DNA of 64,000 nt, from contig JAPKYJ010000013.1 of NCBI GenBank assembly GCA_026394375.1, positions 2,089 through 66,088 of the forward strand, in the 5' to 3' direction. Source of the stretch: Methanomassiliicoccales archaeon (GTDB lineage Archaea; Thermoplasmatota; Thermoplasmata; Methanomassiliicoccales; UBA472). A program made the translations under genes and the position numbers. The notes under the pieces are model-generated. The model saw only the letters and a program-made list of their open reading frames with translations, did not search any database and had not been told where the DNA came from. Every line of letters starts with the position of its first letter. The first letter of the stretch is position 1. Positions 14,151-35,988 of the stretch are shown here, one piece after another.

Positions 14151-15119
14151 TCAGTGCTCGTGCTCTTCCTCGTTTGCTCCAACGGGTCGGCGGAACACGC
14201 AGACCTCGTCCTGGCAAGCTTCGTACTCAAGTTGCAGTGTGGTGTGCGAAATCCTGAACTTCTCCATCAGAAGGCGTTCGCAGTCCTTGACGATGCAAGA
14301 GCACGCGCTCACCGGCTGGTCGTTCACCTGAAGGTGCGCGCTCATGGCGTAGACGCCCGAACCCAACGTCCAAGCATGAATGTCATGCACGTCCACCACT
14401 CCGGGCACCATCTTCATCTCCTTCCTGAGCTCAGCCAGGTCCAGGTTTCCGGGCGTGAACTCCAATAGGATGTACGCGGACTGCATGACTATCCTCACAG
14501 ACCCGTACAGGATGACCACGCCGATGACCAGGCTGATGGCCGGATCGGCGATCCTCAGCCCGAAGAAGTAGATGAGCAGCGCGCTGACGATGACGCCCAC
14601 GGAAGAGAGCATGTCGCCCAGCACATGCAGGAACGCGCCCTTCACATTGAGGTTTTCCCTCGCCCCTCGACGGAGCAGGAGAGCTGCGGCCACGTTGGCC
14701 GCCAGACCGGCCACCGCCACCAGGAGCATTAGCTGGGACTCGATCTCCACCGGGTTCTGGATGCGCGCGATCGCCTCGTACATGATGATGATGGAGACGA
14801 CCCCAAGCCCCACTCCGTTGATCAGGGCCACCAGGATCTCAGCTCGCAAATAACCGAACGTCTGCTTCTCGTTGGCCATGCGCATGGCCACAACCCCCGC
14901 CCAAAGGCTGAGGGCCAGAGCGAGGACGTCCGTGAACATGTGGCCGGAATCGGAGATGAGGGCCAGGCTTCCGCTCAGGAAGCCTCCGAAGAGCTCGACC
15001 ACCGCGAACGTGAGGGTGATGGCGAGGGCGATGAGCAAGGGACGGGTGGAACGTCCGTTCCCCCTCAGTCCATCGTCGAGATGGCCATGCATCGGAAGAA
15101 ATAACACATCGCCGAGCAT
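14151..15119 (-). CDS. cation diffusion facilitator (Zn/Co/Cd efflux) transporter
   Basis: Six TM segments, HMFTDV and HVLGDM metal-site motifs, and a C-terminal cytoplasmic domain with a His-rich tail (EEEHEH). Confidence 0.9.
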   Translation of the reverse strand: MLGDVLFLPMHGHLDDGLRGNGRSTRPLLIALAITLTFAVVELFGGFLSGSLALISDSGHMFTDVLALALSLWAGVVAMRMANEKQTFGYLRAEILVALINGVGLGVVSIIIMYEAIARIQNPVEIESQLMLLVAVAGLAANVAAALLLRRGARENLNVKGAFLHVLGDMLSSVGVIVSALLIYFFGLRIADPAISLVIGVVILYGSVRIVMQSAYILLEFTPGNLDLAELRKEMKMVPGVVDVHDIHAWTLGSGVYAMSAHLQVNDQPVSACSCIVKDCERLLMEKFRISHTTLQLEYEACQDEVCVFRRPVGANEEEHEH

Positions 15120-15205: not shown

Positions 15206-17071
15206 ATGAAGTTCAAGGTATGCTTCCTTCCCGATCACGTGGTGGCCGAGTTCGTTCGCGGCACCACCGTTCTCGACGCCGCCTCCAAGGCGGGAGTGGA
15301 GATCCAGTCCACCTGCGGCGGAAAGGGGGAGTGCCGCAAGTGCAAGGTGATCGTGGAAGGCGAGGCGGAGATGGCCGCCGACACCAAGCTGGACAAGGAG
15401 CTCATTGAAAAGGGCTATAGGCTCGCTTGTCAGACCTACGTCACCGGGGATATCACCGTTCATGTACCAGAGGAAGCCAGGGTGAAAGAGGGCCAGATAC
15501 TGACCACTCATTCTTCCTTCCGGCCAAAGAAGCTCGAGCCCATGACCCGCGCGCTCGAGTTGCATCTGCCCCACCCGGGCCAAAAAGACAACCTTGGCGA
15601 CCTGGAACGGCTGGCCAGAGCACTAGGCAAGGAAGCGGGTCAACTCCGACCGCCGGTCGATCTGCTGCGTCTTCTCCCCCGCAGGCTAAGAGATCTGGAC
15701 TGGAAGGTGAACGCGCTGCTGGCGGCGGATGATTTGGGCGGGGAGCTGTTGGACATCCTACCCGAAGGAAGCTGCCATCTGGGCGCCGCCCTGGACATCG
15801 GCACGACCACTGTGGTACTTTCTCTGGTGGACCTGGAGAAAGGGGACATCATCTCCACTGCTTCGGACTACAACAAGCAGATGCGCCTGGGTGACGACGT
15901 GATCACGCGCATCTCCTACGCCGAGGAGGGAGGGTTGGAGGAGCTGCGGGAGCAGGTGCTGCAGACGATCAATCAGCTCGTGCTCTCCGCCAGAGCGAAT
16001 GCGCCCAAGCTCGTGGCCGACTGCGACATCTCCGCTCTTTCGGTGGCAGGCAATACTACCATGATACATCTGTTCCTGGGCCTGGAACCGAAGCATATCC
16101 GATATGATCCCTACGTCCCGACGACCAACGTGCCTCCCCTGCTCAGAGGGAAGGACACGGGCCTGGTCATGCACCCAGAGGGTCTGGTGTACTGCATTCC
16201 GGGCAGAGCTAGCTTCGTAGGCGGGGATGTCACGGCGGACGTCATCGCCTCGGGAATGCATGGACGCTCGGAACTCGCCCTGCTCATCGACGTCGGCACC
16301 AACGGCGAGGTCGTGCTCGGCAACCAGGAGTTCTTGGTGGGTTGCTCTACCTCCGCCGGACCGGCGTTCGAAGGCGGCGAGGTGGCCTGCGGCATGCGAG
16401 CCATGAGCGGAGCCATCGAGAAGGTCTGCATAGATGAGGAGCTGGAGACGCAGCTGAGCGTCATCGGGGACGCACAGCCCTTAGGCGTGTGCGGCTCCGG
16501 TCTGATAGACCTCCTGGCGCAGATGTTCCGCTGCGGGCTGGTGGACCGCAAGGGACGCATCCAGGGTGGCAAGTGGCCCCGCGTCAGGCAGACCGAGATA
16601 GGCCCGGAATACGTGGTGGCCTTCGCCGAGCAGGGCAAGGCCAAGAAACGGGAGATTGTCATCCATGAGGACGACATCGCCAACCTCATCCGCACCAAGG
16701 CGGCGCTGTACGCAGGATGCAGCGTGCTGCTCAAGAGCGTGGACAAGGAGTTCTCGCAGCTCGACCGCGTGTACATAGCCGGCGGCTTCGGCAACTACAT
16801 CGGGATCGAGAACGCCATCCTCATCGGACTGCTGCCAGATCTGCCCCGGGACAGATTCGAGTTCATCGGCAACGGAGCATTGGCGGGCGCGGTGCAGACG
16901 CTCCTCTCAGCGGAGAAGAGACTGGAGGCTAGGCAGGTCTATGATGACATGACCTACATCGAGCTGAGCAACTCCCAGCTCTTCTTCAACGAGTTCTCCT
17001 CCGCTTCCTTCTTGCCGCATACGGACCTGGAACGCTTTCCTTCCGTGGCGAGACAGCTAGGGAAGAAGTGA
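15206..17071 (+). CDS. reductive activator of corrinoid Fe-S protein (RACo; 2Fe-2S ferredoxin + ASKHA ATPase, DUF4445)
   Basis: The N-terminus has a plant-type ferredoxin Cys pattern (STCGGKGECRKCKV...LACQT). It is followed by a ~500-aa ASKHA-like body (LDIGTTTVV..., IDVGTNGEV..., AGGFGNYI). Confidence 0.85.
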   Translation: MKFKVCFLPDHVVAEFVRGTTVLDAASKAGVEIQSTCGGKGECRKCKVIVEGEAEMAADTKLDKELIEKGYRLACQTYVTGDITVHVPEEARVKEGQILTTHSSFRPKKLEPMTRALELHLPHPGQKDNLGDLERLARALGKEAGQLRPPVDLLRLLPRRLRDLDWKVNALLAADDLGGELLDILPEGSCHLGAALDIGTTTVVLSLVDLEKGDIISTASDYNKQMRLGDDVITRISYAEEGGLEELREQVLQTINQLVLSARANAPKLVADCDISALSVAGNTTMIHLFLGLEPKHIRYDPYVPTTNVPPLLRGKDTGLVMHPEGLVYCIPGRASFVGGDVTADVIASGMHGRSELALLIDVGTNGEVVLGNQEFLVGCSTSAGPAFEGGEVACGMRAMSGAIEKVCIDEELETQLSVIGDAQPLGVCGSGLIDLLAQMFRCGLVDRKGRIQGGKWPRVRQTEIGPEYVVAFAEQGKAKKREIVIHEDDIANLIRTKAALYAGCSVLLKSVDKEFSQLDRVYIAGGFGNYIGIENAILIGLLPDLPRDRFEFIGNGALAGAVQTLLSAEKRLEARQVYDDMTYIELSNSQLFFNEFSSASFLPHTDLERFPSVARQLGKK

Positions 17072-17160
17072 TCGGTTGCGAGGTCCTAGGAGGGCTTCGC
17101 GGTCCACGTCAGGCAAAATGGCAAAGGCTTTATCAAATGCGAGCGGAATGTGCGGGAAGC

Positions 17161-18189
17161 ATGTCCTGGAACTGCCTGCCGTTGTGCATCGGCTCATTGC
17201 CACATGACGATCCAGCGAAGGCGGTGGACCTGGTCCTCCGGCATCTCAAGCGCATTCCGTACTGGCCGCAGCTTCCTGCCTTGGGGTTCAGGGAGAACAT
17301 GTACGCTCAGTATTCGATCAAGCTGCCCGGCGCCCGCATCGACGAGGAAGGCAAGCGCATCATCGTCGACCTCGCCAACTACGATCCTCATGAGTTCTAC
17401 GAGGCGGTGATCTCGGAGGACCTGGAGCATTTCGCTCTTCCCCGGGAGAGCTTCCACGGACTGCATGAACTGCTATCTCGCCTTATGCCGGAGGAGGCCG
17501 TGGCAATCAAAGGCCAGGTGACCGGACCGGTGAGCCTGGGGCTGCAGGTCTTCGACTTCACGGGCAAATCGGTCATCTATGACGACGCCTACGGCGAGAT
17601 CGTGCGCAAGAACCTCAACCTCATGTTGCGCTGGCAAGAGTCCAAGCTCCGGGAGAAATGCCCCCGGACCATCATGTTCCTGGATGAGCCGTCGCTTTCG
17701 CTGGTCGGCACGCCGTTCGCAGCCATATCCCCCTCTCAGGTCAAGGCCTGGATCGACGAGGTGTTCGAGGGGGCCAAAGGCTGCAAGGGACTGCATTGCT
17801 GCGGCAATACCGATTGGCCGACGGTCCTGGACACGAAGATCGACATCCTGTCTTTCGACGCCTACAGCTACGGTCACACCATCTCCCTCTATCCGGGAGA
17901 AGTGACTTCGTTCCTCGATCGCGGGGGCACCATCGCCTGGGGAATGGTGCCGAACAGCGAGGAGACGTTGAACGCAGAGACGATGGGCTCGTTGCTGGAG
18001 AGATTCGATTCATCCATCGAAAGACTGGTGGCCAAGGGCATCCCCCGGAGTAAGATCGTGGAGAACTCGCTCGTGACCCCTCAGTGCGGCCTAGGCGGGC
18101 TGAGCGAAGAGCTGAGCGAGACGACCGTACGGACGCTGGTCTCCCTTTCGGAGGAGTTCCGCAAGCGCAACGAGCTGGAGGAGGCATGA
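17161..18189 (+). CDS. MetE-like (cobalamin-independent methionine synthase catalytic-domain / URO-D superfamily) methyltransferase
   Basis: GSLPHDDPAKAVDLV...IPYWPQLP, and Zn-ligand-like GLHCCGNTDW and VTPQCGLGG. The track ORF starts at GTG 17068, overlapping the RACo stop. In-frame ATGs at 17137 and 17161 fit the family N-terminus better, so the start is uncertain. Confidence 0.65.
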   Translation: MSWNCLPLCIGSLPHDDPAKAVDLVLRHLKRIPYWPQLPALGFRENMYAQYSIKLPGARIDEEGKRIIVDLANYDPHEFYEAVISEDLEHFALPRESFHGLHELLSRLMPEEAVAIKGQVTGPVSLGLQVFDFTGKSVIYDDAYGEIVRKNLNLMLRWQESKLREKCPRTIMFLDEPSLSLVGTPFAAISPSQVKAWIDEVFEGAKGCKGLHCCGNTDWPTVLDTKIDILSFDAYSYGHTISLYPGEVTSFLDRGGTIAWGMVPNSEETLNAETMGSLLERFDSSIERLVAKGIPRSKIVENSLVTPQCGLGGLSEELSETTVRTLVSLSEEFRKRNELEEA

Positions 18190-18938
18190 GCTTCCGCATC
18201 GCCGTGGCGGGGAAAGGAGGAGTGGGAAAATCCACCTTGGCCGCGCTGCTGGTGCGCGCACTCCATGACCGATCAAAGAAAATCATCATGGCCGTGGACG
18301 CCGATCCGAACTCCAACCTGGGAGAGAAGCTCGGGGTCAAGGTGGAGAAGACCATCGGCGACCTGCGAGAGGAGCTGCTGAAAAAAGCGGACGAACTTCC
18401 TGCTGGTCAAAGCAAGCAAGAGTATGTGCGTTATCAGATGCAGCTTGCCCTGATGGAAGGGGAGGGGTTCGATCTGCTCACCATGGGGCGGCCGGAAGGG
18501 CAGGGATGCTACTGCTACATCAACAACATCCTGCGCACCTTCCTGGACATGGCCATGGACGATTACGAGTACGTGGTCATAGACAACGAGGCGGGCATGG
18601 AGCACCTCTCCCGCCGAACGACCAAGAGCATGGACGTTCTGCTGCTCGTGTCCGATCCGACCAAGGTCGGATTGGAGACGGCGAGGAGGTTGCTGGATCT
18701 GTCGAAGGCCATGGAGATCAAGGTCGGCACCTCGCTTCTTATCGTGAATCGAGCAAAGAAGCCGTTGGACCCAGGGCTGGATGAGCTGATATGCTCTGCG
18801 GGATTCGACCGCGTGGAATTGGTGCCTCAGGACCCAGAAGTGGAACGAGCGGCTTCGATGGGCCAGTCCCTGATCGGCATCGCCCCGGAGAACGCGGTGC
18901 TCAAGCGAGTGGGCGAGATTGCGTGGCTGCTCGTTTGA
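18186..18938 (+). CDS. cooC: CooC/AcsF-type Ni-insertion ATPase
   Basis: Internal ATG 18186 overlaps the previous stop (ATGA). It has the deviant Walker A motif AGKGGVGKST, a DADPNSN segment and the Ni-binding CxC motif (GQGCYCY). Confidence 0.85.
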   Translation: MSFRIAVAGKGGVGKSTLAALLVRALHDRSKKIIMAVDADPNSNLGEKLGVKVEKTIGDLREELLKKADELPAGQSKQEYVRYQMQLALMEGEGFDLLTMGRPEGQGCYCYINNILRTFLDMAMDDYEYVVIDNEAGMEHLSRRTTKSMDVLLLVSDPTKVGLETARRLLDLSKAMEIKVGTSLLIVNRAKKPLDPGLDELICSAGFDRVELVPQDPEVERAASMGQSLIGIAPENAVLKRVGEIAWLLV

Positions 18939-19388: not shown

Positions 19389-20714
19389 CTAGAGCGACTT
19401 CAGGAATCTCGGCAACCCGCTCGATTCCTTAGGCCCTACGATGATCTTGAGCCCGGTCACATCCTGCAGCTTGCCGCTCATGCGCGTGACCATGCCCGGA
19501 ATGACCAGTTCTCCTCTCTTCGTCTTCTGCTTCGCGCCGGATGCTTCCAGCGCCTTGGCCATGCTCTCAGGGGTCAGCTTCCCCGCAGCGAAGGCGGTCA
19601 TCACGCTCAGCCCTTCCGTGTCCACGACCAGCAGCCAGGCTGGCACCTTGCTCTTCTCGATGTCCGCCAGCACGGTGAAATATGTGAGCGAGAAATTGGT
19701 GGTGAAGAGGATGGGCGAGCTCTCGTTAGCATTGTTGACCGGATACACTCCCGGCTTCACCTGGATGGGCACCTGCGGATCGGTGTAGATGTTCTGTCGA
19801 AGCACGAACAGGGGTAAGGCCTGCGCCTCCGTCAGCTCATCGAAGAGCACGATGCTGCCATACTTCATGGTCGCCACCATGCCCATGAGCGTTCCATGCT
19901 GTCCTTCTCCCGCCTGGACCAGTATCGGGTAGCCGAGCCCGCGGAACAGCCGTTTCACGGACACCTTCCTGATGATGGACGACCTTTCCAGCAGCGTCTT
20001 CATGTCCCGGGCGCCGAAATCCAGCACCAGCTCCTCCACGCCGGTAGCCTTGACCTTGGCCACCAGGTCGGCGAGTTCGTTGAGACCTTTCTCTTCGCGT
20101 ACCACCAGGGGGCACTTGAGCTCCTTGGCCACGGCGCTCATGGCCTCATAGTTCTTAATTTCCGCGCCGTGCAGTAGAGGCTTCCTGTCAGCGATCTTCG
20201 ATGCTGCCGCCCTCATCGCTTCTGCGGAGGAAGTGATGAGAACCAGGGGTTCCTCGGTCCTCGAAGCCACCAACTCCGACGCCCGGACGAACTTCTCCCG
20301 GTCACTGGAATCATTGCGCACCGCCAGAGCGTCCAAGCACAGTACCTGGCCCACGCGCTCGAAGCTCATCTTCCTGGCCTTCTCGAGCTTCTGAGCGATC
20401 TCTTCCTGGGAGAGTGAATCGGAGATCACCAGGGCGAACGCCACCGGATGGAAGAACTTCTTCTCGTGGCGATAGAGTTCGGTCTCATCGCCCATCTCGA
20501 TTGTCTTCTTGCCAGTCCCGAACTTGATCATGCGGATGGGCGGCGCGGCGCTGGCGGCGAACTGCGCCTTCGCCTCGTCCGAAAGGAATGGACAATCCTC
20601 CAACTTCGCTTTGGAGTTGGCGATCTGCATGGCGAACGCCAAGCACGTGGGGTAGTTGCATTTGCCACAGTTCTTCTTGGGCAGGAACTTGAAGACCTCG
20701 ATGGCGGTGGGCAT
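19389..20714 (-). CDS. acsC: corrinoid iron-sulfur protein, large subunit
   Basis: The N-terminal [4Fe-4S] motif is KKNCGKCNYPTCLAFAMQIANSKAKLEDCP. Size is 441 aa. It directly abuts the acsD stop (TGAATG). Confidence 0.9.
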   Translation of the reverse strand: MPTAIEVFKFLPKKNCGKCNYPTCLAFAMQIANSKAKLEDCPFLSDEAKAQFAASAAPPIRMIKFGTGKKTIEMGDETELYRHEKKFFHPVAFALVISDSLSQEEIAQKLEKARKMSFERVGQVLCLDALAVRNDSSDREKFVRASELVASRTEEPLVLITSSAEAMRAAASKIADRKPLLHGAEIKNYEAMSAVAKELKCPLVVREEKGLNELADLVAKVKATGVEELVLDFGARDMKTLLERSSIIRKVSVKRLFRGLGYPILVQAGEGQHGTLMGMVATMKYGSIVLFDELTEAQALPLFVLRQNIYTDPQVPIQVKPGVYPVNNANESSPILFTTNFSLTYFTVLADIEKSKVPAWLLVVDTEGLSVMTAFAAGKLTPESMAKALEASGAKQKTKRGELVIPGMVTRMSGKLQDVTGLKIIVGPKESSGLPRFLKSL

Positions 20715-21671
20715 TCACTTCCCTCCGCTCAGCTCGTTGATCGAGTCCTTGAGGATGCGTGCCGCCGCCGGGCTTCGGACGATGAGGATGTCCGCTCCGG
20801 CAAGCAGAGCGGCCAGCCCGGTGGTCGCCTCCCATAGTACGGCTCTATCCCTCAGGCCGTCATGGCCCTCGATCTCCTCTATCGCCTCTTTGGATTTCCA
20901 GGCGACGGAGGTGTCGCAGACCAAGGGCACTTGCAGCATGCCATCGCCCATCAGAGCGGCGATGCGGATCCGTTCCATGACGGAATAGGTGTACTCCAGC
21001 CCCATGCCCAGCGATGCCATGAGCGGGTCGGTGATGATCTGGTCCTTGCGCACGCCGAAGTCGGTGAGCAAGATGTTGATCTGCTTGGCCAGATTGATAT
21101 CTAGATTCGAAAACGAAATGATGTCGTGGTCGTTGGCCATGGCCACGGCGGAAAGGGATTTGTATGCCGATTCCTCGGCGTGTCCGAGCAGTATTCGCTC
21201 CTTGGCGGCCAAGTTCCCGACCGCTTCCATGACCTTGGCGTCCTTCTCCTCGTGACCGCAGCCGTAGACGATAAGGGGGACGTCCACGGCCTCGAGCACC
21301 GCTTTCACGATGTTCGCCGCTTCTTCGGGCGTACGATTCTCTTCCTCCGGACTGGTGGAGTGCAATTTCAGGCACACCAGATCGACGCCGCTGTTCTGCA
21401 CCCACTTGCGCGCCCAGGCGGCCGGATCTTGAACTACGTCCCCGAGTTCATTCGCAACCTGGAGCGGCAGTTCGCCCGGCCGGTCGAGCACTTCGCCTGC
21501 GATGAGAGGCCGGTTGGGCATCTGCGCCTCGTAGGAGAGGAAGGGCATGCCCGCTTCGCCTCCGACTTGGAGAGGGAGTGAGCGCGTTCCGCCCTGCTCC
21601 TTGCTCTTGCCCAGGGCGACCGTGCCTATCCTTCCGCTCCATTTCTCCTTGGGGACCGGAACCTCGACCAT
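20715..21671 (-). CDS. acsD: corrinoid iron-sulfur protein, small subunit
   Basis: TIM-barrel-like sequence ...VDLVCLKLHSTSP...VPLIVYGCGHEEKD...FSNLDINLAKQ... I prefer ATG 21671 (MVEVPVPKEKW), which has GGAG 8 nt upstream and sits 14 nt after the CODH::ACS stop. The track start at 21740 would overlap that gene. Confidence 0.9.
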   Translation of the reverse strand: MVEVPVPKEKWSGRIGTVALGKSKEQGGTRSLPLQVGGEAGMPFLSYEAQMPNRPLIAGEVLDRPGELPLQVANELGDVVQDPAAWARKWVQNSGVDLVCLKLHSTSPEEENRTPEEAANIVKAVLEAVDVPLIVYGCGHEEKDAKVMEAVGNLAAKERILLGHAEESAYKSLSAVAMANDHDIISFSNLDINLAKQINILLTDFGVRKDQIITDPLMASLGMGLEYTYSVMERIRIAALMGDGMLQVPLVCDTSVAWKSKEAIEEIEGHDGLRDRAVLWEATTGLAALLAGADILIVRSPAAARILKDSINELSGGK

Positions 21672-21685
21672 GTTGACATCTCCAA

Positions 21686-24600
21686 TCACTGCAGCAGCGG
21701 AGGCATGCTTAGCGCCGGATGGTGCACCTTCACCATCCACTCCACGAGCCCTTCGGCTTCGGTGGTGATCGTCTCATCGGCGATCTTGTCCACGAAGTCC
21801 GGCACGCCCAGCTCCTCCGCTCTCTTCTTCAAAGCGTCCATTATCTGCGTCTTCAGCTCCTTGGGCATCCAGGCGATGCGCAGGAACCCTCCGTCCGCGG
21901 GGATGAACTTCTTGCTCAGGATGTATTTGCGGCCCACGCCGATGAAACCTGGTGTCTGCTTGCCACCGCCTATGCTTCCGGCCAGGGTGGAGAACTTCAT
22001 GCCCACCGGGGTCATGCCCGGGAACTCTCGGTTCACCAGGACGACCGCCTGGGCATCGGCGGTCATGGCCACGATGACCTCGAAGCAGCCGCAGCTGGTC
22101 ATCGGGTCCTCCATCATGGTGTAGGCGTTGAATCGCTCCAGCTTGTGATGCGAAAGCTCGAAGACGGCCTGGTTGACGCCTTTCCATTGCCCCTTGACGG
22201 CATCGATCACCTCGCCCTTCTCAATGGGCTGATTGGGGCCGGTCGGCGAGATCTCTTTGGCTGCCTTGGCGTCGAGCCAGTTGATTGCTCCGCACAATCC
22301 AAGGCGTTCCGGGGTGATGATGCAGATATGGTCTGGGGCAAATGACTGGCATAAAGAGCAACTGAACGCTACGTCCACCGCCTCGTCCGTCAGCCCGGCC
22401 AGACGCTCGTCCCTGGTCTTGTGCTTGGAGAGTGCCTCGGGAAGAAGGGCATCGATCCTCGCTTGGTCGGTGATGATGGTCACCTGCACCCGGGAGATGA
22501 TGTTACCGAACTCAGCCTTGAGCTTGGTGACAAGGATGTCGCCGAAATGCTGGAAGCGAAGGCCAGCGTGAACGGAGTTCTTGCTGAGACGGACCCAGAT
22601 GGTGTTCCGCTGCCCGGTATGCCACGCCCCCTCGGCGAAGTTGATGAACTGATGGATGCGCCGCTCCAGGACGGACTCGAAGTCCTCCTGCATCTTCTTG
22701 CCGTAGACGTCGACGATGATCGCCAGGGGCGTCTTGCCGCCTTCCGGCATCTCATCCACATCCTTTCCGATGAGGGTGATCTTGCCGTCCTCCACCTGCT
22801 CCTCGGGCAGCATGCGCAGCAGCTCGAAGGCGGTGGTCTTGGCCGCTCCTCTCGCTTCTATGTAGGTGTCCGGCCTGCGTACGGTCTCGCCTTCGAACGC
22901 CGGGCCGTAGGCCACCGGTATCTGGACGGGAGCGAGCTTCACCCGGATGTTGCGCAGCTCGATGGCCGTCTGCACCATCTTGTCGTATTCGGGCTGGGAC
23001 ACGAGCTTGTCTGGGACAGCTTCCACGTCCTGATCGGTTATGATCGGGGAGCCGTTGAGAAGCACCGCAAACCCCACCGCGGCTTTGATGGCGTCTATCG
23101 GTCCCAGCTGCAGCACGAAGACCTTAGGCCTTTTTGCCAGGTACTTCTGCAGACGCTCGCGGTCCCCACGCTGCACGTTGCCGAAGGTCAGGGCCGCCCT
23201 TATGGCGAAATTCAGACCGTGTATGACTTGGGTGAACTCTCCCACGGGACAGAGCATGACGTCCAGTCCTACCTTGACGCCCTCATCCTGAAGCTGGCGG
23301 ATGGTGTCGAAGGAGGCGACGATGAGCATGCCCTTGCTCTGGCAGTCGCGCACGATGCGCACCAGCTTCTTGGGGTCTTCCGCCGTCCCCACCAGAACGG
23401 CGCAGCCAGGGATGGTGTCGTCCACGAAGGCGATGCCCAATCCCCGCAAGACCTTGTCAGGGATGAATCCGCAATACGGCGTGCCCTCGTATGGACGCTC
23501 GTTGCGCGAGTACTTCAGCGCCTCGATGATCTCCGCGGCCACCATGGTCGCTTCCCCGGCCAAGAGCGCGTTCTCTATCGTAGGTTCGTGCTTGATGATG
23601 CCCCTGGCCTTGCTCAGAACTGAGGGCATATCGCCCAGGCGATGCACTTCCTTGCCTTCCCAAGCAAGGATGGCCGGGAGAGCGTACCCGGTCTCGGGGA
23701 ACTCCACCTTCTGATCGTAGCCGAAGCGCTCGATCGCCCGAGAGAGCAGCAGGTTCGCGTAGCCGGTGGCGATGATCGCTCCATCGATGGCCATCTGGCA
23801 GAGTCGATCCTTCTCGAGCCTAGGTCCGGATTGTACCTCATAAGAGTTGGACCACTTCATTTTCCAGCGACGCCGCTCCATCTCGTTGAGCAGCTTCTTT
23901 CCTGCCTCGGTCGGATCGGGCTCGTAGATGAACTTCCCACCGAAGACGTCGCCAGCGGTGTTCGTCAGCACCTCCACCACTAGGGGCGACCCGCAAATGT
24001 AGTTGACCATGCCGACATGCACTCCCAGACCGAATGCCACGCACCACGTGCCTAAGGAGACGGCCCTCTCGTGATTCGCTTCCGGGACCGAAACCACGAA
24101 AGGAATGCTGTCCACGTCCACCCTCAGGTGATTGGCTATCTCCGTAGCCAGGTTCATGGCCCGGGTGTTGTCCATGCAAGAGCCCATGTGCCAGACCGGA
24201 GGCAGGGGAACGCCGTTCGCATTCTCCAGGTCGCGGATGAACTTCTTCAGCCCCGGTCCAGCATGCTTCTCCGTTGCCTCGCTAGATAGGAATCCGTTCT
24301 CAGCGAAAGCGCCTGCCGAGCAGCCGGTGGTCAGGACCAGAACATCATTTCTCAGTAGCTCTTTGGCGATGGTGATGTGGCTCGGATCCTGCTCCGTTCT
24401 CTGGTTGTTGCACCCGGACATGAGGGCGATGCCTCTGATCTGCCCTTTCTGCAGGGCATCGATGAGGCACATCATCGGGTCCTCGGGCACGATGCGCGCG
24501 AGGAGCGCCTCGATCTGCTCCAGGCTGAAACCGGTGATTACCTCTGACTTGACGTTTGGAATGTGAACCTTGGAAGGGTCGCGGCGCTTGTAGGCCTCGA

Positions 24601-25762
24601 TGGCCATTCCGACGATGGCCTGGGCGGATTCCTCCGCATCCTCTTCGCGGAATTGGACGTGGGTGTCGTGGGGGATGTGCACGTTGATCATGGTGGTGAC
24701 CACGTCGGTGTGCACGCACTGGCATATCTCCGCCAGGGAAGGCATGATGCACTGGTGGTCTGCGACCAGAAGATCGACCGCTCCCGTGGCCAGGGCCAGC
24801 TCCTGGGAAGCGAAGTTGGCGGCCATGCTCACCCCCTTCCTCATGAGCCTCTCATTGCCTGTGCAACCAATGCCGACGATGTTGATGCCCTTGGCCCCTG
24901 CCTCTCTGGCCTCTTCCTCCATCTTGAGGGCCACGTCCACCATCACCTCGCTCAGGACGGGATTGTGGTCGTGGATGGCGATGTTCACCTCGTCCGCCTT
25001 AGGAGTGCCCAGATCGGCGAAGGTGCGTACCAGATGCGGGGTGCCGAAGAGTATGTCCGAGAGATCAGTAGAGATCTGCATGCCGTCGTAGTCGGCGATG
25101 GCGCATGCCACTCCGGCGAAGATGAGCGAGACGGGATTGGCATCGCAGCCGAGCGAAGTGCGGTGCATGACGTCCGAGATGGCGTGGTCGATGTTGTTCG
25201 GCAATAGGCCATGCTCCTCCAGTAGCCTGCGACGGCGGGCAGTGATGGTGGAAGTGGTGAACTTGAGCGGCTCGGCGCCGAAACGTGCATAGTCGGAGAT
25301 CGCTTCCTCGGTGACCAGGCGCGCCAGCTCATCCTTCCCCTTGCCTGATGGATCGATGCTCAATCGCTTGGCCAACCGTTCAAGCTTGGTCTGGTCATTG
25401 ACCGAGTAAGAGGGAACGCTTCCCTGGATGACCTTGAGCAGAGTCTCGGCGATGTGCCTGCCATGGCCGGAGTGCACCGCCGCTCCCCCAGCGATATGGC
25501 GGACGAGGTTCCACGCGACGATGGTGTAGTCCCTGGCTCCGCAGATTCCCTGATTGGGCCTTCCCTGGAAGGCACTGATGCGGCACGGCCCCTGGAGGCA
25601 ATTGTTGCAGCACACGCCCAGCTCGCCGAAGCCACATTGCGGCTGCATGGCCTCGTAGCGGTCCCGGACGGTGGCAATGTGTTGCTGGGAAGCGATTTCG
25701 ATGCCCTGCTTGGCGCCGGGATCGCTCGTCTTTTCCTTATTGACCTTGCCGTTGGGTTCCAT
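21686..25762 (-). CDS. acsAB: fused Ni-CODH (AcsA/CooS-like) :: acetyl-CoA synthase (AcsB-like), 1358 aa
   Basis: The N-terminal half has CGFGELGVCCNNCLQGPC, IHDHNP, GIGCTGNE, DHQC, SGCNNQ, TGCSAG and MGSCMDN. The C-terminal half is colinear with bacterial AcsB, including SCSLCQSFAPDHICIITPERLGLCG and the A-cluster motif SCGCFEV. It is a single uninterrupted frame. Confidence 0.9.
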   Translation of the reverse strand: MEPNGKVNKEKTSDPGAKQGIEIASQQHIATVRDRYEAMQPQCGFGELGVCCNNCLQGPCRISAFQGRPNQGICGARDYTIVAWNLVRHIAGGAAVHSGHGRHIAETLLKVIQGSVPSYSVNDQTKLERLAKRLSIDPSGKGKDELARLVTEEAISDYARFGAEPLKFTTSTITARRRRLLEEHGLLPNNIDHAISDVMHRTSLGCDANPVSLIFAGVACAIADYDGMQISTDLSDILFGTPHLVRTFADLGTPKADEVNIAIHDHNPVLSEVMVDVALKMEEEAREAGAKGINIVGIGCTGNERLMRKGVSMAANFASQELALATGAVDLLVADHQCIMPSLAEICQCVHTDVVTTMINVHIPHDTHVQFREEDAEESAQAIVGMAIEAYKRRDPSKVHIPNVKSEVITGFSLEQIEALLARIVPEDPMMCLIDALQKGQIRGIALMSGCNNQRTEQDPSHITIAKELLRNDVLVLTTGCSAGAFAENGFLSSEATEKHAGPGLKKFIRDLENANGVPLPPVWHMGSCMDNTRAMNLATEIANHLRVDVDSIPFVVSVPEANHERAVSLGTWCVAFGLGVHVGMVNYICGSPLVVEVLTNTAGDVFGGKFIYEPDPTEAGKKLLNEMERRRWKMKWSNSYEVQSGPRLEKDRLCQMAIDGAIIATGYANLLLSRAIERFGYDQKVEFPETGYALPAILAWEGKEVHRLGDMPSVLSKARGIIKHEPTIENALLAGEATMVAAEIIEALKYSRNERPYEGTPYCGFIPDKVLRGLGIAFVDDTIPGCAVLVGTAEDPKKLVRIVRDCQSKGMLIVASFDTIRQLQDEGVKVGLDVMLCPVGEFTQVIHGLNFAIRAALTFGNVQRGDRERLQKYLAKRPKVFVLQLGPIDAIKAAVGFAVLLNGSPIITDQDVEAVPDKLVSQPEYDKMVQTAIELRNIRVKLAPVQIPVAYGPAFEGETVRRPDTYIEARGAAKTTAFELLRMLPEEQVEDGKITLIGKDVDEMPEGGKTPLAIIVDVYGKKMQEDFESVLERRIHQFINFAEGAWHTGQRNTIWVRLSKNSVHAGLRFQHFGDILVTKLKAEFGNIISRVQVTIITDQARIDALLPEALSKHKTRDERLAGLTDEAVDVAFSCSLCQSFAPDHICIITPERLGLCGAINWLDAKAAKEISPTGPNQPIEKGEVIDAVKGQWKGVNQAVFELSHHKLERFNAYTMMEDPMTSCGCFEVIVAMTADAQAVVLVNREFPGMTPVGMKFSTLAGSIGGGKQTPGFIGVGRKYILSKKFIPADGGFLRIAWMPKELKTQIMDALKKRAEELGVPDFVDKIADETITTEAEGLVEWMVKVHHPALSMPPLLQ

Positions 25763-25846: not shown

Positions 25847-25874
25847 CTCACCTGGCGCGCCACGCCTAGGTGAG
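25847..25874. promoter_or_regulatory. inverted repeat CTCACCT-N14-AGGTGAG
   Basis: Perfect 7-bp arms at 25847-25853 and 25868-25874, next to the TATA-like box. Confidence 0.3.
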
Positions 25875-25926
25875 ACAATTCATTTCTAATCCGAGGGCGC
25901 TCCTACGTGTGGATGAGGAAGGAGCC

Positions 25927-26880
25927 ATGACAACGAATGATGTAAGTCCCAAATCCACGGCAACAGGTCCACGACCGGTCCATACCTACTCCATCGTGGC
26001 GATCGACAATGAGACGGGGGACATGGGTGTGGCGGTGCAATCGCATTGGTTCTCCGTGGGCAGCGTGGTCGCCTGGGGTGAAGCCGGGGTGGGGGTGGTG
26101 GCGACCCAGGCCTTCGTCAATCCGGCCTTTGGACCGAAGGGGCTCGATCTCATGCGAAGCGGGCTCAGTCCCGCGGAGGCGGTGGACATGCTCCTTCCCT
26201 CAGATGAAGGAAGGGAATCCAGACAGCTTGCTCTCCTGGACACCAAGGGGCGAGTGGCTGCCCACACGGGCAAGGCCTGCATCGCGGAGGCAGGGCACAT
26301 TATCGGCAATGGCTATTCCGTGCAGGCGAACATGATGCTCCGGAGAACGGTCTGGCCTTCCATGGCCCGGGCGTTCGAGAAGGCGCGAGGTCCCTTGGCA
26401 GAGAGAACGTTAGGCGCCTTGGAAGCGGCTGAGAAGGCTGGAGGGGACATCAGAGGAAGACAGTCCGCCGCTCTGTTGGTGGTCCGAGGACGCTCGACCG
26501 GCAGGCCCTGGACAGACCGTCTCGTCGATCTTCGGGTAGATGATTCTCCTGAACCGCTGCTTGAGCTCAAACGCCTCCTCAAAATGCACCGCGCCTACGA
26601 ATCGATGAACCAGGGGGACGAAGAGCTGGAGAAAGGGCACATGCGGGCGGCCATGCGCTGTTATTCCGCCGCCGAGGAGATGTTCCCTGAGAACCTGGAG
26701 ATGCGCTTTTGGCATGGGGTGACACTGGCGAACTGCGGCCGACTGGAAGAGGCGGTCCCTATCCTGAGGCAGGTGTTCGAGGAGGACGATCACTGGCGAG
26801 TGCTTCTGAAGCGCTTGCCAAAGGCTGGAGTGCTGAAAGCAGATGCGAAGTCCCTGCTCGCCATGATCGATGCTAAGTGA
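25927..26880 (+). CDS. DUF1028 (Ntn-hydrolase-like) family protein
   Basis: HTYSIVAIDNETGDMGVAVQSHWFSVGSVVAWGEAGVGVVATQAF is the typical DUF1028 N-terminus. ATG 25927 is preceded by GAGGAAGGAG. Confidence 0.7.
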   Translation: MTTNDVSPKSTATGPRPVHTYSIVAIDNETGDMGVAVQSHWFSVGSVVAWGEAGVGVVATQAFVNPAFGPKGLDLMRSGLSPAEAVDMLLPSDEGRESRQLALLDTKGRVAAHTGKACIAEAGHIIGNGYSVQANMMLRRTVWPSMARAFEKARGPLAERTLGALEAAEKAGGDIRGRQSAALLVVRGRSTGRPWTDRLVDLRVDDSPEPLLELKRLLKMHRAYESMNQGDEELEKGHMRAAMRCYSAAEEMFPENLEMRFWHGVTLANCGRLEEAVPILRQVFEEDDHWRVLLKRLPKAGVLKADAKSLLAMIDAK

Positions 26881-26949: not shown

Positions 26950-27449
26950 TCATTCGATGACCACTAAGACCTTCCCGCCTTCCACCGCCTCTGCCGGCTT
27001 CACCTTGATCTCCTTGATGGTGCCGTTCACTCCCGCCAATATCTCGTTCTCCATTTTCATCGCTTCCAATATGAGAACGAGGGTGTTGGGGTGCACTTTG
27101 TCCCCCACCTTCACCTTGATGCTGACCACCTTTCCAGGCATAGGGGCGGTGATAGCACCCGCTGCCTCTTTGTGTGCTGCTCCCTCCTCCTCTTCCTTGT
27201 AGCCTTCGGCCCTCTCCAGTTCGATGATCGGTTCGATGCGCACCTTCATCTTCCTCTGGCCCAAGGTGACCTCCGCGCCCTCATCTAGTTCACCGTCGAA
27301 TTGGATGGGAAGGAACTCGCCGTTGACGTTCATTCCCCCCTCCTTGGGCATGCATTTGAACGACGAGTCGCCGATGACCACCTTGTAATCGCCGGCGTTC
27401 TTCTCCACCAGGACCTCGTGCTGCTTGTCGTTGAGGGTGATGCGGAGCT

Positions 27450-27462
<13 letters not shown>
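26950..27462 (-). CDS. biotin carboxyl carrier protein (1.3S-like subunit)
   Basis: The C-terminal biotinyl domain is PMPGKVVSIKVKVGDKV...LILEAMKMENEI. The N-terminus LKLRITLNDKQHEV parallels MKLKVTVNG of the Propionibacterium 1.3S subunit as I recall it. I prefer the GTG start at 27462, which overlaps the 5S stop by 13 nt. Confidence 0.8.
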
Positions 27463-28937
<1,475 letters not shown>

Positions 28938-28947
28938 CCTTCGTACC

Positions 28948-30525
28948 TCACAGGGGCATGTTGCCGTGCTTCTTTGCCGGTCTGGTCTCCCTTTTCCTTT
29001 CTAGGGTGTGCAGGGCGTTAATCAGCTTCGCCCGCGTTTCCCTCGGTTCGATGACGTCGTCGATGTATCCCTTCTCCGCTGCGGTGTAGGGATTCGCCTG
29101 GGTGCGACGATACTCTTGGGCAAGCTCTTCACGCTTCGATTGGGGATCGTCCGCCAGTATGAGCTCCTTCTTGTACACGATGTCTATGGCCTGCTCCGGT
29201 GCCATTATGGCGATCTCCGCCGAAGGCCAGGCTAGGTTGATGTCCGCCCGGATGTGCTTGGAACCCATGACGCAATATGCCCCGCCGAACGCCTTTCGCA
29301 GCACCAGGGTGATCTTGGGCACCGTCGCCTCGCAGTAGGCGTACATGAGCTTGGCCGAGTTGCGGACCATGCCCAGCGTCTCCTGCTCCACGTTCGGCAG
29401 GTAGCCAGGTACGTCCACCAGCGTTACTATGGGAAGGTTGAAGGCGTCGCAGAAGCGGACGAATCGGGCCGCTTTGATGGATGCGTGCGAGTCGATGGTG
29501 CCCGCCAGGACCGAAGGGTGATTGGCCACGATGCCCACCGGCATGCCGTCCAGGCGAGCGAAGCCCACGATGATGTTCCTGGCGTAGTCCTCCTGGACCT
29601 CCAAGAACTCGCCTTCGTCCACCACCTTCTCGATCACTTCATGCATGTTCAATGGCTTGATGGGGTCCTCAGGGATGGCGTCGTTGAGGGCGTCCTCCGT
29701 CCGGTCGGGGGGATCCTTGGTCGGCACGCGGAGCCCTCCTTCCAGGTTGTTGGATGGTAAGTAGGATAGCAGCTTCTTGGCCTTGCGCAGGCACGCGGCC
29801 TCGTCCTCGGTGACGAAGTGCGCGCTTCCAGATTTCGAGGTGTGCACCTCCGCTCCTCCTAGCTCTTCGATGGAGATGTCGATGTTCTGCACCGCCTTGA
29901 TGACGTCCGGCGCGACCACGAACATCTGGCTGGTGCCTTTGACCATGAATGTGAAGTCGCTCAGACCGGGGAAGAAGACCGCCGGGCCGGCGCATGGACC
30001 TAGCACCAGGGAAATGACCGGCACCACTCCCGAGGCAAGAGAGATGCGGAAGAATATCTCGGCGTAGCCGGCGAGCGAATCGATGCCTTCCTGCACCCTC
30101 GCTCCGCCCGAATCATACATACCGATGACCGGACAGCCGGTCTTGGCCGCCAGGTCGATGGCCTTGCAGATCTTGGAGGCGTGCATCTTGCCCACCGAGC
30201 CAGCGAACACGGTGAAGTCCTGCGCGAACACGTACACTTGCTTTCCGTCCACGGTCCCGTGGCCGATGACCACCCCATCGCCGAGGATCTTGTTCTTGTC
30301 CATCCCGAAGGCGTTGCTCTGGTGGGTGAGGAAGGCGTCCAGCTCCACGAAGCTGCCTGGGTCAAGGATGGCCTCGATGCGCTCTCTGGCCGTCATCTTG
30401 CCTTGCTTGTGCTGCTTCTCGATTCTCTCGCTACCCCCACCAGCCTTGGTCCTCCGCCTCAGCTCCCTGAGCTCGCGGATCTCCTTCCTCTCCCTGTTCG
30501 CCTCCTCACTCGGCATCACGCGCAC
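28948..30525 (-). CDS. acyl-CoA carboxyltransferase 12S subunit (methylmalonyl-/propionyl-CoA carboxyltransferase beta family)
   Basis: 525 aa with a duplicated crotonase-like carboxyltransferase pattern (GKMTARERI..., DFTVFAGS, GPCAGPAV, ANHPSVLAGT, AFGGAYCVM). Confidence 0.9.
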   Translation of the reverse strand: MRVMPSEEANRERKEIRELRELRRRTKAGGGSERIEKQHKQGKMTARERIEAILDPGSFVELDAFLTHQSNAFGMDKNKILGDGVVIGHGTVDGKQVYVFAQDFTVFAGSVGKMHASKICKAIDLAAKTGCPVIGMYDSGGARVQEGIDSLAGYAEIFFRISLASGVVPVISLVLGPCAGPAVFFPGLSDFTFMVKGTSQMFVVAPDVIKAVQNIDISIEELGGAEVHTSKSGSAHFVTEDEAACLRKAKKLLSYLPSNNLEGGLRVPTKDPPDRTEDALNDAIPEDPIKPLNMHEVIEKVVDEGEFLEVQEDYARNIIVGFARLDGMPVGIVANHPSVLAGTIDSHASIKAARFVRFCDAFNLPIVTLVDVPGYLPNVEQETLGMVRNSAKLMYAYCEATVPKITLVLRKAFGGAYCVMGSKHIRADINLAWPSAEIAIMAPEQAIDIVYKKELILADDPQSKREELAQEYRRTQANPYTAAEKGYIDDVIEPRETRAKLINALHTLERKRETRPAKKHGNMPL

Positions 30526-30571: not shown

Positions 30572-31336
30572 TCATTGGAGGCTCGCCTCCTCGGTCTCGA
30601 GCAATCTCAGGGTGGTCTCGCTCACCCAGCTGAGCTTCACCAGCGGACCTTCATCGCTCCGCACCACCAATCCGCCGTCCTTCAGGACCCGTAAGGCCTT
30701 CCCTCGAACGACCTTTCCGCCAAGGTTCGCCTCCACCTTCCGGCCGAGCACGGAGGAGCGGCGCTTGTACTCGGCCTCGTCCACCTCGCCCTTCTTGAGC
30801 CGAGAATAGAAGCGGTCTAGGTGCTGTAGGATGCTGGCTAGCAGCTGCTCCTGGTCTACCTCGTGGCACGAGGCCGCTCTCAGGGAGACTGCCCTCTCCA
30901 CCTGATCCGTTGCCGGCTCGGCATTCACATTGATGCCGATGCCCAGCACCACGAAGTCCATCCGGTTCAGCTTGCTCACCCCCTCCACGAGGATGCCGCC
31001 CAGCTTCCTTCCCTCCAGCTCCAGGTCGTTGGGCCATTTGACCTGAACCCGGAGGCCGGTGACCTCCTCGATGGCCTGGGCCACCGGCACGCACGAATAC
31101 ACAGTCATGCGCAGCAGCTCCTTGGTGGTGAGCTGCGGTCTGAGGAGTAACGACAGATACAGACCCCCTGGGGGCGAGGACCACGTTCTGCCCAACCTTC
31201 CCTTGCCAGCGCTCTGACTTTCGGCCACGATCACCAATCCCTCAGCTGCCCCCGCTTTTCCTCTGGCCTTGGCCTCGTCGTTGGTGGACGCGACCTCTCC
31301 CTGGTGGACGATGCGGTGCACGATTGTCATCCTCAT
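30572..31336 (-). CDS. birA: biotin-[acetyl-CoA-carboxylase] ligase
   Basis: The motif GKGRLGRTWSSPPGGLYLSLLL is present. There is no N-terminal HTH domain (254 aa). Confidence 0.85.
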   Translation of the reverse strand: MRMTIVHRIVHQGEVASTNDEAKARGKAGAAEGLVIVAESQSAGKGRLGRTWSSPPGGLYLSLLLRPQLTTKELLRMTVYSCVPVAQAIEEVTGLRVQVKWPNDLELEGRKLGGILVEGVSKLNRMDFVVLGIGINVNAEPATDQVERAVSLRAASCHEVDQEQLLASILQHLDRFYSRLKKGEVDEAEYKRRSSVLGRKVEANLGGKVVRGKALRVLKDGGLVVRSDEGPLVKLSWVSETTLRLLETEEASLQ

Positions 31337-34924: not shown

Positions 34925-35731
34925 CTACGTGCGTGCGTCCTCATCCAGCCAGACTCTCAAGTTCTGTACCGCCAGGACGAAATCCTCCGCTCCCGGCGCA
35001 TCGAATACGGGCGCTCCCTCCAGGTCTGCTTCCACCAAGGCCTTGGAATATGGAAGCGTGCTCACAGGTTCCAGACCGAAGTTGTTCCGCAACCCCGCCT
35101 TCATCATCCGTCCTTCCTCCTCAGAGGAGATCTTGTTCATGACCACCGCCACCCTTCCGATGCCCAATTCGGCGGCCATCTGCCCTATCTTCCTCGCTAT
35201 CTCCATGGACCTCTGCCCAGGTTCGATGACCACAAGCATGATATCAACCGAGCGTGCGGTGGACCTCCCCAAATGCTCCAGACCCTCTTCCATGTCCATG
35301 ATCACAATCTCGTCCTCCTCCAGCAGAAGGTGGTCCATGACCCTCTTCAGCAAGGTGGACTCGGGAGAGAAGCAGCCCTCGCCCGCGGTGTTGATCGCGC
35401 CCAGCAGCAAGACCTCTACCTTGTCCGGGCCTTCCACCGAATAGTTCTCCATCAGGTCATTCACCCTTGGATTGAGCTTGAACATGCCGCCATGGCCTTG
35501 TCCGGGACGGGCGCCGGGCTTCTCCTCGATGAGATCGTACATCGAGGCCAGGGGCTTGGCCTTCTCCCTCTCTTTCGGGGGGATGCCGACGGCGGCCATC
35601 AGCGAGGCCGAGGGGTCCGCGTCCACGGCGAGCACTTTCCGACCCTCTCGCGCATACAGCCTGGAGAGCACCGCCGCCACGGTGGTCTTGCCCACCCCTC
35701 TCTTGCCCGATATGGCGATCTTGAGGGGCAT
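34925..35731 (-). CDS. cooC: CooC-family P-loop ATPase paralogue with a degenerate metal motif
   Basis: Walker A SGKRGVGKTT and a DADPSAS segment are present. The position of the CxC Ni motif reads GEGCFSPES: Cys120 at 35372-35374 and Ser122 at 35366-35368. Confidence 0.8.
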   Translation of the reverse strand: MPLKIAISGKRGVGKTTVAAVLSRLYAREGRKVLAVDADPSASLMAAVGIPPKEREKAKPLASMYDLIEEKPGARPGQGHGGMFKLNPRVNDLMENYSVEGPDKVEVLLLGAINTAGEGCFSPESTLLKRVMDHLLLEEDEIVIMDMEEGLEHLGRSTARSVDIMLVVIEPGQRSMEIARKIGQMAAELGIGRVAVVMNKISSEEEGRMMKAGLRNNFGLEPVSTLPYSKALVEADLEGAPVFDAPGAEDFVLAVQNLRVWLDEDART

Positions 35732-35923
35732 TCAATCCCTCATGAAGACGATGCCGTGGCTGAGCAGGTTTGCTTCTTTGAACCTCACGCCCTGCAGCAC
35801 CATCCTCTCGCCGATAAGGCTGACGCACACCGCGTCCTTGCCATCCATGGCGATGCGCGCGACATCGTCCATGACCTTGCGGGCCTCGCCCTCCTCCTCC
35901 AAGAACACCGCTGACTCGCACAT
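35732..35923 (-). CDS. cooT: CooT-family nickel chaperone
   Basis: MCESAVFLEEEGEARKVMDDVARIAMDGKDAVCVSLIGERMVLQGVRFKEANLLSHGIVF fits the ~63-aa CooT pattern (Met-Cys-Glu N-terminus). I therefore prefer the second ATG at 35923 over the track start at 35935. It abuts cooC. Confidence 0.7.
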   Translation of the reverse strand: MCESAVFLEEEGEARKVMDDVARIAMDGKDAVCVSLIGERMVLQGVRFKEANLLSHGIVFMRD

Positions 35924-35988
35924 GTTCGCAAACAAAGCGGGCTGTCGTATTTAATCGTTGTTCGGCTTGTTCCGCCTCCCCACGACCT

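Follow-up and report, generated by a model that had tools for sequence, protein, structure and literature searches.

A 64,000-nucleotide stretch of the genome of a Methanomassiliicoccales archaeon (assembly GCA_026394375.1, contig JAPKYJ010000013.1; hereafter the window) carries, at positions 21686–25762 of the minus strand, a gene for a protein of 1358 residues that is probably a single-chain, dual-function carbon monoxide dehydrogenase and acetyl-CoA synthase (CODH/ACS) of the 'bacterial' type, in architecture (CooS plus three-domain AcsB) as in overall mechanism. This CO2-fixing enzyme lies at the core of the Wood-Ljungdahl pathway. The less expected point about the gene is a pair of residues, Gly299 and Arg566, at otherwise nearly invariant positions near the metal centre at which CO is formed.

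The open reading frame (ORF) runs from ATG to stop without interruption (1358 amino acids plus stop), and the DNA across its junction is in frame, as the original prediction had claimed. Over all 1358 residues the protein is 100% identical to GenBank MCX6652117.1 (encoded on a 194.5-kb contig), entitled 'MAG: acetyl-CoA decarbonylase/synthase complex subunit alpha/beta [Methanomassiliicoccales archaeon]', so the PGAP name reflects the ACS half only; the JGI annotation of relatives carries both enzyme names. The assignment of the whole ORF rests on Pfam and NCBIfam. The CooS-type Ni-CODH module (residues 1–635; 23858–25762, minus strand, as are all parts of this gene) contains Prismane (PF03063) at residues 50–617 with 498.7 bits and matches TIGR01702 (CO_DH_cata) at residues 14–635 with 642.7 bits (cut-off 478; positions 3–619 of the 621 in the model). 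A linker of about 20 residues (636–655; 23798–23857) is followed by the three ACS domains: A1 (656–945; 22928–23797), with CODH_A_N (PF18537) at 673–751; A2 (946–1110; 22433–22927), with CdhC (PF03598) at 948–1102; and A3 (1111–1358; 21686–22432), which holds the A-cluster, with ACS_CODH_B_C (PF19436) at 1115–1357. The AcsB-type model NF040764 scored 954.4 bits (cut-off 800) over residues 659–1356 (model 1–704 of 705) and the three-domain ACS model NF007078 952 bits (cut-off 809), the two together spanning 652–1357. In the profile check suggested with the original prediction, both halves of the one protein were above curated cut-offs. In the PDB, the ACS half aligned end to end with the ACS of Carboxydothermus hydrogenoformans (Ch) and Moorella thermoacetica (Mt) (7zkj_B, 1ru3, 1oao_C; 800–810 bits), beginning at Ch ACS residue 11 and Mt ACS residue 23, which, with the two AcsB models, bears out the proposed likeness of the C-terminal half to Moorella-type AcsB. 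The CODH half, also end to end, matched ChCODH-II (1su6) with 643 bits, the ACS-associated CODH of the same organism (7zkj_A) with 622 and Moorella AcsA (1mjg_A) with 602.

The junction had been placed at about 23800–23875, which agrees with the linker as we delimit it, between an Arg-Arg-Trp motif (RRW, residues 631–633) that closes the last CODH helix and the N-terminal helix of AcsB (AIDGAIIATGYA). The peptide spanning it reads ...WSNSYEVQSGPR... in the fused protein. In a search of 5.8 billion clustered proteins (sources JGI, ENA, NCBI and Logan assemblies), these four Pfam domains recurred together in at least 120 clusters formed at 90% identity (1333–1405 amino acids, 54–94% identical). 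In this fused family both modules lie in one frame with an RRW–linker–AIDGAIIATGYA junction, as in the window protein. RRW is invariant and the AcsB helix conserved, and the linker between them varies in sequence and length (classes of 28, 34 and 37–39 residues over the same span), its length differences in the family alignment being whole codons only. The covalent fusion of a CooS-type CODH with a three-domain, Moorella-type AcsB is genuine, and its host is archaeal.

The metal ligands of both modules are complete. Aligned with ChCODH-II residues 7–629 with almost no gaps, the CODH module has the D-cluster ligands C43 and C51 (Ch Cys39 and Cys47) and the B-cluster ligands C52, C55, C60 and C74 (Ch Cys48, 51, 56 and 70), in the motif C43-x7-CC-x2-C-x4-C...C74 at 25541–25636 that was recognised from 1su6 and the family alignment. 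It also has the six C-cluster ligands H266, C300, C338, C451, C481 and C529 (Ch His261, Cys295, 333, 446, 476 and 526), and the equivalent of His93 is present as H97. In the ACS module, the A1 domain, which docks on CODH and bears the tunnel in the bacterial enzymes, is present by PF18537 and by alignment to Ch and Mt ACS. The [4Fe-4S] and bridging cysteines of the A-cluster occur in the motif C1135-SL-C1138-QSF...C1147...C1157 (22289–22360; invariant or nearly so in the family), and the Ni-binding motif S-C1224-G-C1226-F-E (22079–22096) is nearly invariant in the family alignment; these cysteines, also by motif, we take to be Mt Cys506, 509, 518, 528, 595 and 597.

Two features of the ACS module were seen in related proteins. 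Some members of the fused family, P0002 and P0006 (1894–1896 amino acids; also locus L023, 3001–8688), contain an intein of about 535 residues (PF14528, LAGLIDADG_3; PF14890, Intein_splicing), inserted as ...YYSCTL|CVPAGE...VVKN|CQSFAPDH... directly ahead of the A-cluster CxxC motif's second Cys, so that this Cys (Cys1138 of the window protein) would be the +1 nucleophile. P0142 (1024 amino acids) is a different AcsB fusion, in which a pyridine nucleotide-disulphide oxidoreductase domain (PF07992, residues 3–268) is joined to a complete three-domain AcsB.

By homology with the Moorella and Carboxydothermus enzymes, two chains would dimerise via their CODH modules. CO2 would be reduced to CO at the C-cluster and the CO would travel through A1 to the A-cluster in A3, where CO, coenzyme A and a methyl group would be combined to acetyl-CoA; the methyl group would be passed from methyl-tetrahydrofolate (methyl-THF) via the AcsE-like methyltransferase to the AcsC/AcsD corrinoid protein, and the overall reaction may run in reverse. 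As the linker joins the two modules in place of the AcsA tail and the AcsB start, their stoichiometry is fixed at 1:1. An AlphaFold2 model of residues 1–950, built from a 55-sequence family alignment (predicted local distance difference test (pLDDT) 87.6, predicted template modelling score 0.90; linker pLDDT 87–91), is compatible with a compact arrangement in which A1 sits against the CODH module belonging to the same chain. Dimerisation, continuity of the tunnel and the direction of catalysis are what we infer for this protein; in view of Gly299 and Arg566, its CODH module may or may not be fully active.

The departures from consensus surround the C-cluster. Every motif quoted in the original prediction is present in the protein; three of those offered as canonical signatures, IHDHNP, GIGCTGNE and DHQC, turn out to deviate from the family consensus, which is HGHNP, GICCTGNE and DYQC. 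Gly299 (codon GGT, 24866–24868) stands where the CCTGNE motif has its first Cys (Ch Cys294; Cys301 in the CODH of D. vulgaris, Dv; Mt Cys316), a position that is Cys in 114/120 family members, and Arg566 (AGG, 24065–24067) at the proposed catalytic base Lys563 (Dv Lys556), which is Lys in 116/120. His336 (24755–24757) is found at Ch Tyr331, two residues ahead of the ligand Cys333, a position that is Tyr in 112 of the 120 and variable over wider CODH diversity. Asp265 (24968–24970), at Ch Gly260 and adjoining the ligand His261 (Gly in 116/120), occurs in the window sequence only within its 90% cluster. Gly299, His336 and Arg566 are shared by all eight members of that cluster, which come from independent assemblies, and among 81 diverse CODH representatives loss of Cys294 or Arg at 563, in combination with His93 and the six ligands, was confined to it.

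Several of these points, and some others, weigh against a fully functional enzyme. The conserved non-ligand Cys beside Cys295 is replaced by Gly299, and of the acid-base pair His93/Lys563 the His is kept (His97) and the Lys is Arg566. Wittenborn et al (2018; PMC6168284) called Dv Cys301 strictly conserved and the Lys the proposed general base; their DvCODH C301S variant was Ni-free, inactive and could not be activated, and the C316S variant of Moorella CODH/ACS was likewise Ni-free and inactive (Kim et al, 2004, cited in PMC6168284). At near-invariant family positions the CODH half departs at 14/160, against a background median of 0 and at most six departures in 104/105 family members, and the ACS half at 5/250. 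Compared with the 94%-identical orthologue P0001 (overall synonymous divergence, dS, 0.16), the ratio of nonsynonymous to synonymous divergence (dN/dS) came to 0.29 in CODH and 0.13 in ACS, so that purifying selection acts on either half; at equal dS, the CODH ratio is higher than the A1 ratio (0.12) by a factor of about 2.5. In addition, each PDB match covers one half, with no chain in the PDB spanning both, and the literature searched yielded no main-text discussion, structure or biochemistry of any fused member.

These observations could mean that the fusion is real and the CODH of this lineage impaired or inactive, its chief remaining use being to give ACS a scaffold for dimerisation and docking, and perhaps a module for electron transfer. 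Such an enzyme would work as an ACS alone, for example cleaving acetyl-CoA for methyl-THF, with the CO released or handed to another enzyme. We take this to be a serious possibility, while leaning away from it. It draws its strength from Gly299 at a Cys whose replacement by Ser left two enzymes Ni-free and inactive, from Arg566 at the proposed general base, from the presence of both in all eight cluster members and in no other sampled CODH that bears His93 and all ligands, from the excess of departures in the CODH half, and from relatives that have lost CODH function outright. Against it, every member of the cluster keeps the six C-cluster ligands, the B- and D-cluster Cys and His93, a CODH dN/dS of 0.29 is still clear purifying selection, and a pair of CooC-like ATPases is still encoded nearby, as is a CooT-like Ni chaperone. 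Gly and Arg also differ from the Ser and Ala substitutions that have been tested, so the functional loss is extrapolated.

The relatives show how far such decay can go. P0094, P0110/P0298, P0115 and P0120 no longer have the B- and D-cluster Cys, nor His261 and Cys295, and 31–57 of the 160 near-invariant CODH positions are changed; Prismane is still detected at 181–241 bits, and the ACS domains are kept (the C-terminal domain, A3, being truncated in P0120). These CODH halves look like pseudo-CODH scaffolds. In P0122 a 263-residue remnant of CODH precedes ACS. AcsB stands alone in 12 Methanomassiliicoccaceae/Methanomassiliicoccus species representatives (loci L029–L032, L036, L041, L044, L047–L049, L051 and L057), where it is 65–79% identical to the ACS half of the window protein and no CODH or remnant was found within 3 kb upstream. 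Methanomassiliicoccaceae are usually described as being without the Wood-Ljungdahl pathway. AcsB without CODH is also a feature of Dehalococcoides, where an ACS-alone role (acetyl-CoA cleavage supplying methyl-THF) has been proposed. The family thus records repeated loss of CODH function with retention of ACS.

Trees (neighbour-joining, 100 bootstraps) limit what can be made of these cases. The idea that the stand-alone AcsB are nested in the fused family, which would have been proof of CODH loss, was unsupported; they form a weakly supported sister group instead (monophyly of fused plus split sequences 69/100, of stand-alone sequences 40/100), and the change between fused and stand-alone AcsB may have gone in either direction. 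Descent of the window lineage and the decayed clade from a shared C294G ancestor was also rejected: the ACS tree puts the window protein and P0001 among canonical sequences and the decayed clade apart. As the window lineage is not sister to that clade, the similar substitutions are convergent, which is a further point against reading the window CODH as a scaffold.

Because all ligands are kept, dN/dS is 0.29 and the Ni-maturation genes are retained, we prefer a functional single-chain CODH/ACS. More tentatively, and with the balance of our judgement on the other side, the window protein may be a natural CODH that lacks the Cys301 equivalent and the catalytic Lys, is under purifying selection and is an intermediate in a recurrent evolutionary series among Methanomassiliicoccales-related archaea, leading from the canonical fusion through altered C-cluster surroundings and a ligand-less pseudo-CODH scaffold to stand-alone AcsB. 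If that series were true, ACS would have been progressively uncoupled from CO2 reduction. A CODH active without Cys301 would call for a revision of the essential role in Ni insertion that has been proposed for this Cys, and an inactive one would make the protein an ACS with a dead CODH as scaffold. The window copy is in either case a natural test of whether a C-cluster can be assembled and turn over without the catalytic Lys and the Cys beside the Fe(u) ligand, and the repeated loss of CODH bears on the use or abandonment of the acetyl-CoA pathway in relatives of Methanomassiliicoccales methanogens. A natural single chain with fixed stoichiometry could also suit structural work, heterologous expression, and studies of CO channelling and ACS domain motion. 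The main value of the finding lies in the natural loss of the Cys301 equivalent and the catalytic Lys and in the decay series, more than in the fusion.

The original prediction had further taken the bacterial-type partners to suggest a laterally acquired module, a claim that does not stand in that form. The set is classically bacterial, in that its CODH is CooS and not CdhA, its ACS is a three-domain AcsB and not CdhC, and AcsC/AcsD, RACo and a THF-dependent methyltransferase go with them, and the best PDB matches are bacterial enzymes. In 99/100 bootstraps, however, archaeal AcsB (fused, split, stand-alone and P0126) forms a single clade that leaves out every bacterial AcsB sampled, and this clade covers several archaeal orders and phyla by the labels of the metagenome-assembled genomes (MAGs). 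Identity to bacterial sequences is low, at 43–52% for ACS and 32–47% for the adjacent acsA-type CODH, and the guanine-plus-cytosine (GC) content is flat (0.60–0.61 in the cluster, 0.58–0.62 over most of the window). A 2026 preprint on ACS diversity independently reports AcsB in many archaeal groups, Bathyarchaeota, Methanomassiliicoccales and Thermoplasmatota among them, and considers placing the root so that it separates bacterial from archaeal AcsB; it leaves the fusion unmentioned. A recent acquisition of the module from Bacteria is therefore unlikely. Given the separate archaeal clade, the low identity and the flat GC content, any transfer would be ancient; such a transfer and vertical descent of an AcsB-type system in Archaea fit these data alike.

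To establish the spread of the fusion, we classified reading frames at the 80 best loci, with one genome per GTDB species and a uniform procedure. A single stop-free frame over both halves was found in 23 GTDB species representatives, all archaeal by title (Methanomassiliicoccales/Methanomassiliicoccaceae, Thermoplasmata, Thermoplasmatota, Methanobacteriota, 'uncultured archaeon/euryarchaeote' and an unlabelled metagenome chromosome). Bacterial loci with both halves always had two frames (Sporomusa, Geothermincola, other Actinomycetota, Thermoleophilia, Marinifilum and Spirochaetales); candidate bacterial fusions at Sporomusa, Actinomycetota, Marinifilum and Spirochaetales loci covering about residues 6–1357 were rejected, as they resolve into two stop-free frames. 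An exhaustive HMMER scan with residues 1–1200 of the window protein against 1.84 billion representatives at 50% identity found one full-length fused representative, P0107, so the fused proteins form one sequence family. The window protein groups with its Methanomassiliicoccales-labelled members (72–94% identity). The family is archaeal, mostly from Methanomassiliicoccales, Thermoplasmata and Thermoplasmatota, with acsA and acsB joined end to end. In four Thermoplasmata MAGs (L033, L038, L042 and L043) CODH (677–680 amino acids) and ACS (720 amino acids) are encoded by two genes, the stop of one overlapping the start of the other in ATGA (at 4989–4995 in L033), and the C-terminal tail of the split-gene CODH (EIVYWTGETAQE) resembles the linker of fused relatives. 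These split genes nest within the fused family (monophyly of fused sequences only, 0/100 bootstraps), which suggests, on these neighbour-joining trees, a secondary split.

That the single ORF arose through an error of assembly or sequencing, in which a missed stop or frameshift merged adjacent acsA and acsB, can practically be discounted: such a merger is easy to imagine where bacterial acsA and acsB are adjacent and co-oriented with gaps of 3–69 nt (as in most loci examined), where a one-base error at an ATGA overlap could fuse two genes, and where a few long-read MAGs show the reverse error within the fused gene (L026, L058), but the same frame recurs in the independent assemblies behind the at least 120 clusters and in the 23 species-representative genomes, the junction flanks are conserved around a linker that varies by whole codons, the orthologue at dS 0.16, in its syntenic operon, keeps the frame, purifying selection acts on the two halves alike in kind, and the full-length protein was predicted independently by the JGI and NCBI gene callers. 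The frameshifts of L026 and L058 are possibly assembly errors. A separate observation concerns L021 (Methanomassiliicoccales archaeon SPRUCE 117), where the fused gene is intact but for a single in-frame stop some 40 codons from its beginning.

The fusion itself was known before. Archaeal MAG data contain it in abundance, and a supplementary table of 2019 had already pointed it out, so the novelty raised in the original prediction, which was to fall if the same fusion proved common, is lost on the count of clusters and species representatives as well as on that table. Supplementary Table 1 of Inoue et al (2019; PMC6344411) lists OGS41472.1 and OGS44063.1, from Euryarchaeota archaeon RBG_16_62_10 and RBG_13_57_23, as fused Ni-CODHs of clade F, 'others'; the main text goes no further than the statement that a catalogue of fused Ni-CODHs was made. 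This supplement was the only explicit record of the fusion in the literature searched. Compared by table description, those two entries have an N-terminal Cys3 motif noted and the window protein has an N-terminus without it; we found the motif in a subfamily of about 1375–1380 amino acids (e.g. CECWDxxC in P0030 and P0047). ACS/CODH genes have also been reported for a Methanomassiliicoccales relative, the MALP MAG (PMC6147122), and for the order UBA10834 (Zinke preprint), in both cases with the fusion unmentioned.

The partners named in the original prediction are present in the window, and the operon is syntenic in L001, the locus of the 94%-identical relative P0001. The gene for an AcsD-like small corrinoid Fe-S subunit (318 amino acids; 20715–21671, minus; NF003376 352 bits, cut-off 280; syntenic in L001) begins 14 nt past the stop of the fusion and is followed by that for an AcsC-like large subunit (441 amino acids; 19389–20714, minus; NF003195 538 bits, cut-off 306; Pfam FeS and CdhD). 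A CooC/AcsF-like P-loop ATPase, a Ni-insertion accessory protein, is encoded at 18084–18938 (plus; Pfam CbiA/AAA_31/ParA; syntenic in L001), and a RACo/AcsV-like reductive activator of corrinoid proteins at 15206–17071 (plus; 621 amino acids), with Fer2 and the RACo linker, middle and C-terminal domains and 600 bits to NF040756, which is under the cut-off of 800. The AcsE-like methyl-THF:corrinoid/Fe-S protein methyltransferase (307 amino acids; 10222–11145, minus) matched NF005719 at 290 bits (cut-off 259) and Pterin_bind. A second CooC-like ATPase (34925–35731, minus; Pfam) and a CooT-like Ni chaperone of 67 amino acids (35732–35935, minus; Pfam CooT on the syntenic L001 gene) lie on the other side of the fusion gene.

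Some neighbouring genes deserve mention. Between the RACo-like and CooC-like genes is an ORF of 373 amino acids (17068–18189, plus; its L001 counterpart has 342) with no Pfam match and 25 bits to an NCBIfam MetE-like methionine synthase model, which could serve the cluster as an uncharacterised accessory protein or methyltransferase. A metal efflux gene of the cation-diffusion-facilitator (CDF) type (14151–15119, minus), located within the acs cluster between a flavin reductase gene and the RACo gene and conserved in L001, may be linked to Ni/Co/Zn homeostasis. A DUF1028/TPR gene (25870–26880, plus) runs in the opposite direction to the fusion gene, and beyond it is a biotin-dependent carboxylase/decarboxylase set (26950–30525 and 30572–31336, both minus; syntenic in L001) that comprises a biotin carrier, an HMGL-like/PYC_OADA subunit, a carboxyltransferase and a biotin protein ligase. 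Farther away are a URO-D family protein (48031–49149, plus), weakly similar, at 54–61 bits and under the cut-offs, to MtaA/CmuA methylcobamide:coenzyme M methyltransferases, and a radical SAM protein of the B12-binding kind (42097–43512, minus). No mcr genes were found in the window.

Of the systems with which the window protein can be compared, the variants DvCODH C301S and Moorella C316S concern the same Cys that is naturally absent here (INVAGLSCTGNELL as encoded by the mutagenic primer of Wittenborn et al, against INIVGIGCTGNERL in the window protein). The window protein differs from them in having Gly rather than Ser, together with the Lys-to-Arg change, and in that this state is kept under purifying selection across the lineage. 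The decayed-CODH members and the stand-alone Methanomassiliicoccaceae AcsB belong to the same ACS family and operon type and keep ACS without CODH function, whereas the window protein retains every CODH metal ligand. The archaeal acetyl-CoA decarbonylase/synthase (ACDS, CdhABCDE) performs the same overall chemistry, and A2–A3 of the window protein match CdhC (TIGR00316 439 bits, cut-off 356); in contrast to ACDS, the window CODH is CooS-type and not CdhA (TIGR00314 35.5 bits, cut-off 781.3), its ACS has the A1 domain that is absent from CdhC, and the methyltransferase is of the THF type. The two-subunit AcsA/AcsB enzymes of M. thermoacetica and C. hydrogenoformans (alpha2beta2; 1MJG, 1OAO, 7ZKJ, 1RU3) have the same two modules and the same C-, B-, D- and A-cluster ligand sets, and share with the window the A1 docking domain and the partners AcsC/AcsD, methyl-THF methyltransferase, RACo and CooC. 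From these the window protein is set apart by being one polypeptide instead of two, in an archaeal host, with a variable linker in place of the C-terminal tail of AcsA (about 17 residues) and the first 10–22 residues of AcsB, and by Gly and Arg at Mt Cys316 and the catalytic Lys.

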